Assembly (NCBI GenBank): GCA_028709545.1
Contig: JAQVWT010000001.1
Span: 658 to 64,657, forward strand
Origin: Bacilli bacterium
GTDB lineage: Bacteria > Bacillota_I > Bacilli_A > RF39 > UBA660
Length of the DNA stretch: 64,000 bases
Direction of reading: 5' to 3'
The notes beneath the pieces are model-generated. The model ran no database searches. It was given only the letters and a program-made list of their open reading frames with translations, and was not told the DNA's origin. This document shows, piece after piece, positions 5,189-36,468 of this stretch. Numbering within the stretch: the stretch's first letter is position 1; the number at the start of each line of letters is the position of its first letter. Position numbers and translations under genes: made by a program.

Positions 5189-5264
5189 GTCCTGTTAGCT
5201 CAGTAGGTAGAGCATTTGACTTTTAATCAAAGGGTCGCGCGTTCGAGTCGCGCACAGGACACCA
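5189..5264 (+). tRNA. tRNA-Lys(TTT); its 3' 50 nt form the prophage attL core
   Basis: Acceptor gtcctgt/acaggac; anticodon loop ctTTTaa; CCA; 3' part repeated at 35973..36026. Confidence 0.85.
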
Positions 5265-5268
5265 TTTA
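5215..5268 (+). repeat. attL core (54 bp, inside tRNA-Lys)
   Basis: Identical to 35973..36026. Confidence 0.85.
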
Positions 5269-5277
5269 AAAACAATC

Positions 5278-5305
5278 AAAAGCCCTTATAAATAGGGCTT
5301 TTGTT
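5278..5305 (+). terminator. intrinsic terminator just inside the prophage left end
   Basis: aaagccct-tataaat-agggcttt hairpin followed by a T-rich tract; would stop tRNA-array read-through into the prophage. Confidence 0.5.
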
Positions 5306-5365
5306 ATGATTTATTTTATTATACAAATAAATTGATAAAGTTCAAAATTGGTTTAAATTTGTTTA

Positions 5366-5397
5366 AATTCTTGTGCGTAGACAACAAGTAGACAACA
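5366..5397 (+). repeat. 32-bp arm-type direct repeat (left copy), contains tandem GTAGACAACA
   Basis: aattcttgtgcgtagacaacaagtagacaaca, identical to 35906..35937. Confidence 0.7.
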
Positions 5398-5403
5398 AAA
5401 AAA

Positions 5404-6456
5404 TCAATCTAATAAATCTATTGTTGCTATTAATTGTTCTTTCGTTTTACTATTATAAATACCATCTGTAATATCTCCACTAACAGAGTGCCCTAATATT
5501 AATTTGCGCGCAAGTCTATTAGCTCCCTTAGAATCCAAATCGGTGCTACAAGTGTGGCGACCGTCATGTGGAGTATGATCTAAATCTAGTTTAATCATTA
5601 ACTCTTTATATTTATCTAAATAATATCTATAATTCATTGCTCTTTTTGAATCATTCCATATTAGATATTCAGATTTGTTATCTTCACTAATTGTAATCCT
5701 ATTTTCAATTAAAGGTATTATTCTTTTATGTATAGGAATTATTCTATTAATACCAGCTTTTGTTTTTGATCCTGCTATTAAATATCTTTTATTTAAATTT
5801 ATTTTATCCAATTTGACATTTAATAATTCGCTAGGCCTTAATCCTGTATATATTAATATTATAACAGTATCCACATAATCCTGCTTTAAATTTTTCCATA
5901 ATATTTCTTTTTCCAATTTGCTGAAAGGCTTATGTTTTGATGATAACTCTTTTTTGCCTAATATCACAAATTCGGCATAATTCATTTTTATTGGTAATTC
6001 TTTTTGTTTAGCAATCTCAAATAATTGATTAAACATAATTTTAACATAGTTCTTAGACGTATAACTCTTATTAATCATATTATCTATTATATCTTGTATA
6101 TCAGATGTTCTGATATCAATAAAACGTTTATTATGCAATTTACTTGATTCATTATAAGCAGCATTATAATTTCCTATGCTAACAATATCTTCTCTTAATT
6201 TCATTTTTTTAAAATGATCGAAAACTCCGGTCAAAGTAATATCTAAGTTATTAAAATCATAAGGATCATTGAGATACATAATTAATGCTCTTTCGGCTAA
6301 CTGTCTTGTTTCCCAATACTTTCTTCCGTCCCATTCAATTATTTCCTTTTTTTGCTTTCCCTGATCATCCCAGTTGTTAGTTATAAAAGCAAAGAACGGG
6401 TTTCTTCTTTTACCAGATAATTTTGATGTTCCTCCAGCTCCGTTTGCTCTTTTCAT
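5404..6456 (-). CDS. int: phage integrase (tyrosine recombinase)
   Basis: TGLRPSEL (R), HDGRHTCST (HxxR), LGHS (H), TDGIY (Y): tyrosine-recombinase catalytic residues; sits next to attL. Confidence 0.85.
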   Translation of the reverse strand: MKRANGAGGTSKLSGKRRNPFFAFITNNWDDQGKQKKEIIEWDGRKYWETRQLAERALIMYLNDPYDFNNLDITLTGVFDHFKKMKLREDIVSIGNYNAAYNESSKLHNKRFIDIRTSDIQDIIDNMINKSYTSKNYVKIMFNQLFEIAKQKELPIKMNYAEFVILGKKELSSKHKPFSKLEKEILWKNLKQDYVDTVIILIYTGLRPSELLNVKLDKINLNKRYLIAGSKTKAGINRIIPIHKRIIPLIENRITISEDNKSEYLIWNDSKRAMNYRYYLDKYKELMIKLDLDHTPHDGRHTCSTDLDSKGANRLARKLILGHSVSGDITDGIYNSKTKEQLIATIDLLD

Positions 6457-6547
6457 GCTTTAAATCACTTCCTTTTTTTATAATTTTATGCTATAATTTT
6501 ATTAGAAAAACTCCTATAATTCTAGCTTGACGGTTATTTTTATATTT

Positions 6548-6586
6548 GTTTTTCTATTTTGATTGCCATTGCAGTGGCGGTCTTTT
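6548..6586 (+). terminator. hairpin plus T10 (plus-strand terminator between int and the HIRAN gene)
   Basis: gccattgcagtggc hairpin then tttttttttt. Confidence 0.35.
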
Positions 6587-6589
6587 TTT

Positions 6590-7204
6590 TTATTTCTTTT
6601 TAATTGCTAAGGTTATGTTACAGCCTCTTGTGGGTTTGTCGTACGTTCCCCCAGTTACTTCGTACTGAAGCGCTCTTATTGATGATGTTTCTTCTTTCTC
6701 AATATATCCTTTTTGATAAAATTCATTAGCAAGTTGTTCTGATAAATATCCTATCTTATAATGTCTTTCTGATGACTCATCATATTTATTATATGTTGTT
6801 AATATTGCTATTACCTCTATTGCATTATCAGAATATTTATTGTTTAAATCAGGACGTATTAAAATATTTGCTTCGTATGAATGTTCCAGTTTAAGTAAAT
6901 ATTCTTGTATTTTACCTTGAGTAACACCAACTATTTTAGTTTCAATTATTTTATGTTCATCTAAAAATTTTTGCTCTTTAATTTTATTTTCTTCTTCTTT
7001 TAAAATAATCTGTTTTTGTCTTTCTTTTAATTTTTCCTCTTCCTCAATTTTTAATTGATTGCTTTTAATTTCTTCAGAATGTATTTTCTTTTTTTTACAA
7101 CGGAAATATATTATTAACCATATTCCTAAAGTAAAATATGTCAATATAATATGACACCAAACACTTCTTTTTTTTAATATTATTTTTTCAAATTCTTGCT
7201 TCAT
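6590..7204 (-). CDS. membrane-anchored HIRAN-domain protein (repressor-operon accessory)
   Basis: N-terminal TM (WCHIILTYFTLGIWLIIYF); coiled-coil linker; C-terminal KIVGVTQ...LIRPDLNNKYSDNAIEV...KIGYLSEQLA resembles the HIRAN signature (GV..Y...L.REP.N.YD.NAI.V...IGY); start overlaps the repressor stop. Confidence 0.45.
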   Translation of the reverse strand: MKQEFEKIILKKRSVWCHIILTYFTLGIWLIIYFRCKKKKIHSEEIKSNQLKIEEEEKLKERQKQIILKEEENKIKEQKFLDEHKIIETKIVGVTQGKIQEYLLKLEHSYEANILIRPDLNNKYSDNAIEVIAILTTYNKYDESSERHYKIGYLSEQLANEFYQKGYIEKEETSSIRALQYEVTGGTYDKPTRGCNITLAIKKK

Positions 7205-7638
7205 AATTTCTCCGTATCATTTTTTTCTTTTTCTTTATCCTCATAATCAAGTATATTTATTAATTTAATTAATTTTTTAATGTCATTGTCATTTAATTTT
7301 TCTAATAAATGTAATACCTTTAATAAATTTTGATTTTCATTACTACGTTCTATTAAATTGATTATTTTTTGATCTGTAGTTAATACAGGATCAATATTAC
7401 CAAAAGTAAATTCTTGATCACTATCTAATACATTCACTAAATCTTGAATTTCTTTTCCCATAGCTTTACTTAACTGTTTAAGAACTTCATACGTAGGAGC
7501 GATGGGTTTATTTGTTCTAGGATCTACTTTTTCTAGTGCGGATATATAAGAATGGCTTAAATTAGCTTTTTCAGCAAATGCTCTTAACGACAAATTATTA
7601 TCTTTTCTGTATTGTTTTATAATTTCATTGATAGTCAT
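7201..7638 (-). CDS. CI-like phage repressor (XRE-family HTH)
   Basis: N-terminal HTH LSLRAFAEKANLSHSYISALEK; divergent to the cro-like gene across an operator-rich region. Confidence 0.75.
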   Translation of the reverse strand: MTINEIIKQYRKDNNLSLRAFAEKANLSHSYISALEKVDPRTNKPIAPTYEVLKQLSKAMGKEIQDLVNVLDSDQEFTFGNIDPVLTTDQKIINLIERSNENQNLLKVLHLLEKLNDNDIKKLIKLINILDYEDKEKEKNDTEKL

Positions 7639-7811
7639 AGAAAACCTCCATAATTATTGTACAATATATTTTACGCAAAAACAAGAAAAATATGTACAAC
7701 ATAGTTGACAAAGTTAAAAACATATGCTAAATTGTATGTACGATATGTTGTACAAAAGAACCGAACGAAAGATTATTAGGTAAAACATATCGCACAGAAG
7801 GTGGTGATAAT
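7639..7811. promoter_or_regulatory. lysis/lysogeny switch region with TTGTACAA palindromic operators
   Basis: Perfect 8-bp palindrome TTGTACAA at 7657..7664 and 7748..7755, near-copies at 7692..7700 and 7733..7743; rightward TTGACA(7705)-N17-TAAATT. Confidence 0.55.
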
Positions 7812-8015
7812 ATGAACAATGTAAAACATTATAGAGAATTAGCCGCAATGACTCAAGAAGCTTTAGCTGTAAAAGCTAGAGTCTCAAGAACTACTATTTC
7901 AAATTTAGAAAACAATATAAAAACGACTATTACTAATGAAACAATGAATAAAATAGCAAACGCGTTGAATAAAACAGTGTTTGAAATTTTTTATGAGGAA
8001 AAACCGTCAAGCTAG
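7812..8015 (+). CDS. Cro-like XRE-family HTH regulator
   Basis: MTQEALAVKARVSRTTISNLEN HTH motif; RBS GAAGGTGGTG. Confidence 0.7.
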   Translation: MNNVKHYRELAAMTQEALAVKARVSRTTISNLENNIKTTITNETMNKIANALNKTVFEIFYEEKPSS

Positions 8016-35868: not shown

Positions 35869-35905
35869 ATAAAATCATAAAATATAATTGTTGTTAAATG
35901 CTTTG

Positions 35906-35937
35906 AATTCTTGTGCGTAGACAACAAGTAGACAACA
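35906..35937 (+). repeat. 32-bp arm-type direct repeat (right copy)
   Basis: Identical to 5366..5397. Confidence 0.7.
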
Positions 35938-35972
35938 CAGCCCAGTTATATTCATAATCGAGGCTTATTATT

Positions 35973-36026
35973 TTTGACTTTTAATCAAAGGGTCGCGCGT
36001 TCGAGTCGCGCACAGGACACCATTTA
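35973..36026 (+). repeat. attR core (partial tRNA-Lys 3' copy)
   Basis: Identical to 5215..5268; no tRNA 5' half upstream. Confidence 0.85.
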
Positions 36027-36072
36027 TTAATTAAGGAGCTTTGCTCTTTTTTTCTAAAAACAGTCTAAAGTG

Positions 36073-36102
36073 TTGACTATAAAAGAAAATTCATGTTATA
36101 AT
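36073..36102 (+). promoter_or_regulatory. promoter of the downstream tRNA cluster (TTGACT-N18-TGtTATAAT)
   Basis: Consensus hexamers with extended -10 TG, read directly. Confidence 0.5.
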
Positions 36103-36127
36103 CTATTTGTTCCCAAAGGGAACATAT

Positions 36128-36220
36128 GGAGGAATACCCAAGTCTGGTTGAAGGGATCGGTCTTGAAAACCGACAGGTCGGGCAACCGGCGCAGGGGTTC
36201 GAATCCCTTTTCCTCCGCCA
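36128..36220 (+). tRNA. tRNA-Ser(TGA)
   Basis: Acceptor ggaggaa/ttcctcc; anticodon loop ctTGAaa; long variable arm; CCA. Confidence 0.85.
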
Positions 36221-36230
36221 AAATTTTTAT

Positions 36231-36307
36231 CGCGGGATGGAGCAGTTCGGTAGCTCGTCGGGCTCATAACCCGAAGGTCGTAGGTTCAAATCCTGCTCCC
36301 GCAACCA
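36231..36307 (+). tRNA. initiator tRNA-fMet(CAT)
   Basis: C1·A72 mismatch; three G-C pairs in the anticodon stem (tcgggctCATaacccga); CCA. Confidence 0.85.
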
Positions 36308-36312
36308 TTTTT

Positions 36313-36389
36313 GGTCCGTTAGTCTAGAGGCCTATGATGCCTGCCTGTCACGCAGGAGATCACGAGTTCGAATCTCGTACGGACCGCCA
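36313..36389 (+). tRNA. tRNA-Asp(GTC)
   Basis: Acceptor ggtccgt/acggacc; anticodon loop ctGTCac; CCA. Confidence 0.85.
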
Positions 36390-36392
36390 AAT

Positions 36393-36468
36393 GGCTCCAT
36401 AGCTCAGTCGGTAGAGCAGAGGACTGAAAATCCTTGTGTCACTAGTTCAATTCTAGTTGGAGCCACCA
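36393..36468 (+). tRNA. tRNA-Phe(GAA)
   Basis: Acceptor ggctcca/tggagcc; anticodon loop ctGAAaa; CCA. Confidence 0.85.

Follow-up and report, generated by a model that had tools for sequence, protein, structure and literature searches.

The window, that is, the whole 64,000-nucleotide stretch of DNA analyzed here, carries two tRNA clusters with a prophage lying between them. This arrangement raises the question of whether the insertion cut a single tRNA operon in two and left its distal tRNAs to a freshly acquired promoter, as the original prediction held, or whether the phage entered at a boundary that was already present. The clusters and the upstream promoter were located as follows.

4679..4707, + strand: P1, promoter of the upstream tRNA unit (TTGATA-17-TATACT; same site in the relatives L005 and L039)
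4743..5264, + strand: tRNA unit 1, Leu(UAA)-Val-Thr-Tyr-Gln-Lys(UUU), with spacers of 5-15 nt (ARAGORN, Rfam)
36128..36468, + strand: tRNA unit 2, Ser(UGA)-Met-Asp-Phe (ARAGORN, Rfam)

Both the six tRNAs ending in Lys and the Ser-Met-Asp-Phe cluster were recovered by ARAGORN and Rfam where they had been read from the letters. Arg-Pro tRNAs followed at 37312..37471 (ARAGORN), and the 12 tRNAs of the window were upheld by Rfam, in which the intact tRNA-Lys scored 73.7 bits. A 13th ARAGORN call, tRNA-Lys at 35945..36022, was rejected, being the attR fragment of this gene fused to phage DNA and falling below the Rfam tRNA threshold.

The inserted element, 30,758 bp long, is a complete prophage of the siphovirus type with a tyrosine integrase. 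Its gene content is listed below.

5404..6456, - strand: tyrosine integrase, 350 aa (phrog_1, 1e-37; PF00589, 1.3e-19, cut-off 27.1 bits)
7201-7638, - strand: HTH repressor of the lysogeny switch, divergent from the Cro-like HTH gene
7812-8015, + strand: Cro-like HTH protein of the lysogeny switch, divergent from the repressor gene
8536..16694, + strand: early/replication region with a DnaD-like loader, an HNH endonuclease and a glycosyltransferase-like gene
12072-12929, + strand: second Xer-like recombinase, within the early/replication region
17965..22755, + strand: large terminase, portal, head protease and major capsid protein
25313..32183, + strand: tape measure, Dit, tail-associated protein and tail fibre
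34152-34859, + strand: endolysin
After the endolysin and up to 35868, + strand: SocA/Panacea-domain protein, then an unknown 143-aa ORF

The integrase gene is located at one end of the element, 140 nt from tRNA-Lys, and the R, HxxR, H and Y residues of its product align with those of the XerC-like protein 4a8e. The structural, lysis and lysogeny modules are all present as long intact ORFs, and no excisionase was recognised among the prophage genes. Both prophage junctions were also found in GCA_028680795.1, an independent MAG of the same species; other samples containing this species include SRR8925785 and SRR22315503. The attachment sites and their surroundings comprise five features.

5215..5268, + strand: attL core, beginning at the anticodon stem of tRNA-Lys and ending 4 nt beyond the CCA
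5277..5303, both strands: T1, predicted phage-borne bidirectional intrinsic terminator just inside attL
5346..5397, + strand: P' arm repeat (repeat family D4), tandem GTAGACAACAA GTAGACAACA, putative arm-type integrase sites
35886..35937, + strand: P arm repeat, a direct copy of 5346-5397
35973..36026, + strand: attR core, a copy of the attL core that forms the displaced 3' piece of tRNA-Lys

The proposed 54-bp duplication of the 3' part of tRNA-Lys is exact: the two cores are identical at 54/54 positions, the repeat stretches no further on either side, and 30,758 bp separate the two copies. The fragment at attR has the same orientation as the intact gene and scores below the Rfam threshold. 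The arm motif occurs at 5377, 5388, 35917 and 35928 only. With its phage gene set, tyrosine integrase and exact repeats, the element was thereby confirmed as a prophage integrated at tRNA-Lys amid tRNA clusters. The intrinsic terminator that had been placed just inside attL was likewise found, as a strong hairpin at 5277..5303 brought by the insert. T1 has 10 pairs and a folding energy of -14.6 kcal/mol (z -4.0; 0/200 shuffles fold as well), and was scored as a terminator on both strands, so that it is predicted to end tRNA unit 1 on the + strand and the integrase gene on the - strand.

Between attR and tRNA-Ser, three further features were identified.

36033..36055, + strand: T2, ancestral host hairpin with a T7 run, predicted weak terminator of tRNA unit 1 (conserved in L039 and L005)
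36073..36102, + strand: P2, predicted ancestral host promoter of tRNA unit 2 (TTGACT-18-TGtTATAAT; same site in L005, L033 and L039)
36109..36123, + strand: conserved leader hairpin GTTCCCAAAGGGAAC ahead of tRNA-Ser (-12.6 kcal/mol, z -3.6; conserved in L005 and L039)

P2 lies 47 bp past attR and ahead of Ser-Met-Asp-Phe. It is the best-scoring site of its region, with 11/12 consensus matches and a TG upstream of TATAAT, and possesses the -35 hexamer, a spacer within the 16-18 nt range and the TGnTATAAT of a sigma-70/SigA extended -10 promoter. The site (TTGACT-18-TATAAT) is where the original prediction placed it; its spacer measures 18 nt and not 17, and transcription would be expected to start at about 36108-36110 and not at 36103. 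T2 folds into seven pairs including a G-T pair (-6.2 kcal/mol, z -1.45), and its counterpart in L039, which was picked up by the terminator scan, reaches -9.5 kcal/mol and has a T8 run. In a three-species alignment of the window, L005 and L039, the -35, the extended -10 and the leader were invariant. We infer the activity of P2, T1 and T2 from their sequences.

The comparison with prophage-free relatives that the original prediction had called for was decisive for the origin of P2. By blastn, the match between the L039 empty site and the window breaks off exactly at 5267 and resumes at 35973; the tRNA-Lys of L039 is followed by a 109-nt spacer and then tRNA-Ser. This evidence comes from another species, the S1 protein of L039 being 65% identical to that of the window; no empty site was found for the species itself, both available genomes of which carry the element. 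In L039, Lys and Ser are already separated by a promoter, and the Lys-Ser spacer measures 105-109 nt in the host lineage. The anatomy of the insertion, the empty site, the conservation of P2 and T2 and the phage origin of T1 are matters of observation. Because the spacer of the L039 empty site already contains the same weak hairpin with its T-run and the same promoter, P2 is ancestral host DNA, a standing promoter as far as its conserved sequence predicts, and no repair. The claim of a fresh promoter restoring the distal tRNAs was therefore abandoned, the same -35, extended -10 and leader being present in the L039 empty site and in L005/L033.

L005 and L033 represent one second species, in which tRNA-Lys carries a decayed prophage scar. 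L005 was first taken as an empty site, and was dropped after a decayed second tRNA-Lys fragment had been found in it. In this species T1 is located between the intact Lys and the decayed copy of the Lys 3' half. The decayed copy retains a 10-nt exact seed, and beyond the seed the purine/pyrimidine class is kept at 27/30 positions, which only 2/24,488 30-mers in the locus can equal. The scar is collinear with the predicted product of recombination between arm repeats, but with large extra deletions. The more distant L047 and L053 harbor one contiguous 12-tRNA array with one promoter, in which tRNA-Lys has a different T-arm and a Leu stands between Lys and Ser. Thus, the idea of one ancestral operon split by the insertion holds only for these distant contiguous arrays and fails for L039 with its 109-nt hairpin/promoter spacer; a single operon is plausible only as a deep ancestral state, and the split predates this insertion. 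Most likely, the species of the window had two transcription units beforehand, or a single one interrupted by a terminator and a promoter, and the phage came in at the end of the first. Given the weak T2 hairpin, some transcription of unit 1 may continue into unit 2 when the site is empty.

The relatives were gathered by several scans. The S1-protein genome scan yielded one useful relative, L005, while L006 stops within the array and the remaining matches were unrelated S1 proteins. A promoter-pattern scan of metagenomes matched only L033, which has the same species and scar as L005. The S1-homologue contigs L034-L038, L040-L046, L048-L052 and L054-L056 break before or inside the tRNA array, and the comparison leaves out the closest species (95% and 89% S1 identity), whose contigs break at the array.

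Taken together, the locus very probably reflects a temperate phage at an operon-end tRNA-Lys, with a phage-borne T1 and a pre-existing T2 and P2, whose insertion was transcriptionally harmless. Tyrosine-integrase recombination would have put the 30,758-bp phage into the 3' part of tRNA-Lys(UUU), with a crossover somewhere in the 54 bp of identity, which begin at the anticodon stem. The attP would consist of a copy of the tRNA-Lys 3' part followed directly by the strong bidirectional T1, with arm-type repeats on either side; in window coordinates it would link 35886-36026 to 5269-5400, and the attB would link 5189-5268 to 36027 onward. Because such an attP carries both the tRNA 3' part and T1, integration would regenerate an intact tRNA-Lys, swapping the weak terminator of the host for T1 and leaving the displaced 3' fragment at attR. 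Before the phage, tRNA-Lys would already have been the last gene of its transcription unit, with T2 and P2 in the 105-109-nt spacer parting it from Ser-Met-Asp-Phe. Since Lys and Ser would have been separated beforehand, the insertion would be harmless to transcription and P2 would repair nothing.

Other explanations were weighed against this reading. One alternative is that the clusters formed one operon until this insertion and acquired the promoter at 36073..36102, newly arisen or recruited, only afterwards to rescue the distal tRNAs. The contiguous arrays of L047 and L053, each with one promoter, would agree with it, a single operon having thus existed somewhere in the ancestry. This possibility is nevertheless extremely improbable: the promoter, its leader and the preceding hairpin are found in the L039 empty site and in L005/L033, the promoter lies in host DNA outside the att repeat, and the still identical 54-bp repeats indicate a recent insertion, yet the promoter is common to three species. 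It is also highly improbable that T1 is the native host terminator of unit 1 and that the phage boundary lies further right. L005/L033 do lack the prophage while having T1 directly after tRNA-Lys, and the alignment of the window with L005 extends as far as 5337. However, the position of T1 between the intact Lys and the decayed Lys 3' half places it inside an old insertion, T1 is missing from the L039 empty site, where the alignment stops at 5267, the host DNA beyond the attR core in the window is devoid of it, and L059, the attP form of a related phage, has both core and terminator. T1 is of phage origin, and its sequence predicts a role as a terminator.

Two further readings concern the history of the spacer and the present state of the element. 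The terminator-promoter spacer between Lys and Ser could have arisen in the clade ancestor because tRNA-Lys was a recurrent phage site, either as an accommodation by the host that renders integration harmless or as the relic of an older element; if so, phage integration would have shaped the operon architecture here, dividing the ancestral 12-tRNA operon exactly at tRNA-Lys. Split arrays were observed in no species other than the three that have this core in their tRNA-Lys, of which one has an intact prophage and another a scar, whereas the contiguous L047 and L053 differ in the Lys T-arm and have a Leu gene separating Lys from Ser; the Lys at the end of such an array is likewise the target of a related integrase. 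Against this, neither a tRNA fragment nor phage sequence can be traced in the L039 spacer, the contrast is one of three species versus two with no phylogeny, and the relocation of Leu shows that ordinary rearrangement has taken place here. Causation in the opposite direction is just as compatible and corresponds to the published view that integrases evolve towards operon-terminal tDNAs (10.1101/2020.11.02.365908), and we consider the phage-driven origin of the spacer improbable. A fixed, defective prophage that no longer excises would fit the lack of a recognised excisionase, the carriage of the element by both available genomes of the species, and the finding of no circular form or free genome in the viral and phage collections searched. 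This is rather unlikely in view of the long intact ORFs of all modules, the 54/54 identity of the att repeats and the retained catalytic residues of the integrase; judging from these features, the prophage is presumably able to excise.

Lambda and the Haemophilus phage HP1 are heterobivalent integrase systems with arm-type sites. HP1 integrates in a tRNA cluster and duplicates a longer stretch spanning more than one tRNA. Similar to lambda-type systems, the prophage has direct repeats on both attP arms (35917-35937 and 5377-5397) and an integrase gene adjacent to attP, although arm binding is predicted here solely from the repeats. Its target also lies within a run of tRNA genes as in HP1, whereas only the 3' part of Lys is duplicated and a terminator is added.

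Genomic islands are known to regenerate the tDNA and to leave a displaced fragment, and anticodon-centred sites are common among them (Islander; Hudson, Lau and Williams 2015, PMC4383910). The present element resembles the anticodon-centred 'A' class of that collection in the tyrosine integrase adjoining the regenerated tRNA gene, in the co-oriented displaced 3' tDNA fragment at the far end, and in the identity block starting from the anticodon stem-loop. There is no difference in principle, and the sequence of this phage is without a close relative. A survey of Klebsiella reported that island tDNAs are monocistronic or last in their operon (bioRxiv 10.1101/2020.11.02.365908). This rule applies here as well: tRNA-Lys ends its unit, behind it come a terminator-like hairpin of the host and the promoter of the next unit, and no co-transcribed downstream gene is cut off; the difference is that the host belongs to a low-GC, spore-forming 'Bacilli' MAG lineage and that its units are defined by sequence, not RNA-seq. 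The case is thus an ordinary, harmless integration of a well-known kind by a previously undescribed phage, and its importance beyond annotation is small. It provides the exact positions of the att sites and a prediction of how attP is laid out, for a phage whose uncultured host lineage is low-GC and spore-forming, and a clean example of two known points, namely the use of the last tRNA of a unit and an attP that carries the tRNA 3' end with a terminator. It also teaches that an insertion-adjacent promoter should be checked against empty sites before being called compensatory.

Scans of viral contigs for the 49-nt core, T1, the arm repeat and the core of the related phage gave 0 matches each, and an integrase search of the viral contigs returned no relatives. 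Megablast of 25 kb of the prophage against 50,697 phage records gave no DNA match. Integrases of the phage records share no more than 34% identity with that of the prophage, and nothing else in 5.8 billion protein clusters exceeds 44%. A related integrase, P0116 (41% identity), was seen in two states, integrated in L057, on contig ERZ24773279 NODE_1172, and in attP form in L059. The L057 element adjoins Lys, the last tRNA of a Val-Thr-Tyr-Gln-Lys array. As in the prophage of the window, the target is a tRNA-Lys(UUU) that closes a ...Tyr-Gln-Lys array, and the core begins at the same point. Directly behind the core comes a terminator hairpin, with tandem 11-nt arm repeats situated between it and the integrase gene. 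In contrast, the two differ in Lys T-arm sequence, in their arm repeats and in their terminators, and their integrases are only 41% identical. The order of the L059 attP is P-arm repeats, Lys 3' part, hairpin terminator, P' tandem repeats and integrase gene.

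The 54-bp sequence at 5215..5268, which covers the 3′ part of tRNA-Lys, was repeated exactly at 35973..36026, at a distance of 30,758 bp, and the identity ended at once on either side. All 12 tRNAs found by ARAGORN in the window were confirmed by Rfam. An extra ARAGORN call of tRNA-Lys at 35945..36022 consists of the attR fragment of tRNA-Lys joined to phage DNA and for that reason scored below Rfam's cut-off; it was rejected. The genes between the repeats constitute a complete siphovirus-type prophage, with the following features in and around it.

4743..5264, tRNAs Leu-Val-Thr-Tyr-Gln-Lys (unit 1; ARAGORN, Rfam)
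5404-6456, minus strand, tyrosine integrase (int)
prophage, divergent HTH repressor and Cro-like pair
prophage, DnaD-like loader and HNH endonuclease
12072-12929, plus strand, second tyrosine recombinase, 285 aa, Xer-like (PF00589, 2e-22), in the early region
15774-16694, plus strand, glycosyltransferase-like gene (phrog_2170, 8e-13)
prophage, large terminase, portal, protease and major capsid protein
prophage, tape measure, Dit, tail-associated protein and tail fibre
prophage, endolysin
34896-35868, plus strand, SocA/Panacea antitoxin-domain gene and overlapping 143-aa ORF, the final two prophage genes ahead of attR
36128..36468, tRNAs Ser-Met-Asp-Phe (unit 2; ARAGORN, Rfam)
37312..37471, tRNAs Arg-Pro (ARAGORN, Rfam)

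The flanking genes (YunB, YutD, YutH, NifU and an S1-domain protein) and a G+C content of about 25% indicate an uncultured spore-forming 'Bacilli' lineage as the host. A second MAG of the same species (GCA_028680795.1, 99.4-99.96% identity) contained both attL and attR on separate contigs, which rules out an assembly artefact as the source of the insertion. Alignment of the integrase with a solved XerC-like recombinase showed that R, HxxR, H and Y were retained. Its identity was at most 34% to integrases of 50,697 phage records, among which the phage DNA had no match, and at most 44% to any other protein cluster. Furthermore, a 52-nt direct repeat with tandem GTAGACAACAA units, found nowhere else in the window, lay on both sides of the core (5346-5397 and 35886-35937), and the two copies would flank the core in the circular form in the manner of arm-type sites.

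The original prediction, in which the prophage split one tRNA operon, brought its own terminator and restored the distal tRNAs with a fresh promoter, described the tRNA clusters, the repeat, the terminator and the promoter site accurately, as judged by ARAGORN/Rfam, repeat identity, folding and promoter scoring. Its interpretation held for the terminator and failed for the promoter. The promoter P2 (36073..36102; TTGACT, 18 nt, TATAAT, with TG upstream) matched at 11 of 12 positions and was the top promoter-like site of its region. In the prophage-free relative L039, whose S1-domain protein is 65% identical, the same six tRNAs were followed after 109 nt by Ser-Met-Asp-Phe. The blastn match of L039 to the window ran to 5267 and resumed at 35973, so its flanks meet exactly at the 54-bp core. 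The L039 spacer consisted of TTTTATTAATTAAG, a hairpin AGAGAGCAAAGCTCT with T8, TTGACT-18-TGTTATAAT and a leader hairpin GTTCCCAAACGGGAA, followed by tRNA-Ser, and the same layout occupied 105 nt past attR in the window. An alignment of three species showed no variation in the -35, extended -10 or leader. P2 and the weak terminator-like hairpin T2 (36033-36055) are therefore ancestral host features, and P2 is no response to the insertion. By this comparison, tRNA-Lys would have been the last gene of its unit already before the phage. A perfect hairpin was present between the -10 and the first tRNA of each unit (36109-36123, GTTCCCAAAGGGAAC; 4714-4732, GTCTTAAATATTTTAAGAC), the former conserved in L005 and L039; these may be leader elements with a role in processing or stability.

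The terminator T1 (5277..5303), just inside attL, formed 10 pairs (-14.6 kcal/mol; none of 200 shuffles folded as well), and was absent from L039. It scored as a terminator on both strands and would also serve int on the opposite strand. L005 and L033, two samples of one prophage-free species (S1 84% identical), carried T1 directly after tRNA-Lys within a 241-nt spacer. Immediately before the host spacer, this stretch also contained a second, decayed copy of the 3′ half of Lys. This copy had a 10-nt exact seed followed by 30 positions of which 15 were identical and 12 more were transitions, chiefly G→A and C→T, and its purine/pyrimidine-class agreement was equalled by only 2 of 24,488 30-mers in the locus. 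T1, lying between intact tRNA-Lys and a displaced fragment, is thus part of a scar left by an element that integrated long ago (L005 5875-6015, L033 1438-1578; identical in both samples). The scar comprised this phage-type terminator, the transition-decayed copy and what may be a degenerate arm repeat. A related phage, with an integrase 41% identical to that of the window, was found integrated (L057) beside the Lys ending a Val-Thr-Tyr-Gln-Lys array and in attP form (L059); to the right, starting at the core, the two are identical, and to the left of the core they are unrelated. L059 has, in this order, P-arm repeats, the 3′ part of Lys beginning at the anticodon stem, a hairpin terminator of 11 pairs, tandem 11-nt repeats and int, which independently supports a phage-borne terminator. 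The absence of T1 from L039, the scar and this attP together support the claim of a terminator supplied by the phage.

Integration within the core would regenerate tRNA-Lys, with a 3′ portion partly or wholly of phage origin depending on the crossover point. Unit 1 would now terminate at T1 in place of T2, transcripts leaving the prophage would run into T2, and transcription of unit 2 from P2 would be unchanged; the activity of these three elements and the ability to excise are predicted from sequence. Islands are known to restore the tDNA, with a displaced fragment left over, commonly at anticodon-centred sites (PMC4383910), and to use tDNAs that are monocistronic or last of an operon (10.1101/2020.11.02.365908). 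The prophage agrees with both generalisations, its tDNA being regenerated with a displaced fragment and its target being an operon-last tRNA. It represents a new phage of a familiar type, next to an ancestral promoter.

A single ancestral operon was nonetheless a plausible part of the original prediction. In the more distant L047 and L053 (S1 57% and 51% identical), the YutH-NifU-S1 genes were followed by one contiguous array, Val-Thr-Tyr-Gln-Lys-Leu-Ser-Met-Asp-Phe-Arg-Pro, with spacers of 3-30 nt; in L047 the array had one promoter and lacked an internal terminator. A plausible older state is therefore a single operon, the polarity from contiguous to split being suggested by two groups without a phylogeny. 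In the window's clade Leu comes first, and the place that it takes in L047 and L053 is filled by the T2-P2 spacer; the L039 spacer shows that this prophage did not make the split. That phage use of the site drove the split at Lys, as co-occurrence in three species might suggest, seems improbable. In L057 (3555-4140), the related prophage follows the Lys of a Val-first array resembling these 12-tRNA arrays, and there the insertion might cut an operon.

The Phe to Arg-Pro gap was 30 nt in L047 and L053, whereas in the window (36469-37311) it held two small ORFs, 36508-36774 (+) and 36763-37188 (-), without family matches. Within the prophage, the glycosyltransferase-like gene is possible cargo modifying the host surface, and the SocA/Panacea-domain gene and the 143-aa ORF, which had no family match, are candidate cargo with a toxin-antitoxin or defence role. 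A perfect (AAGC) x 17.8 tract (32188-32258) lay in the 146-nt gap between the tail-fibre stop (32183) and an ORF without family match (32330-32707), and could be a slipped-strand contingency tract acting on the downstream gene. Finally, a long tandem repeat at 59447-59793 was imperfect, had periods of 18, 45 and 99 nt, and on the minus strand resembles collagen-type G-X-Y codons.
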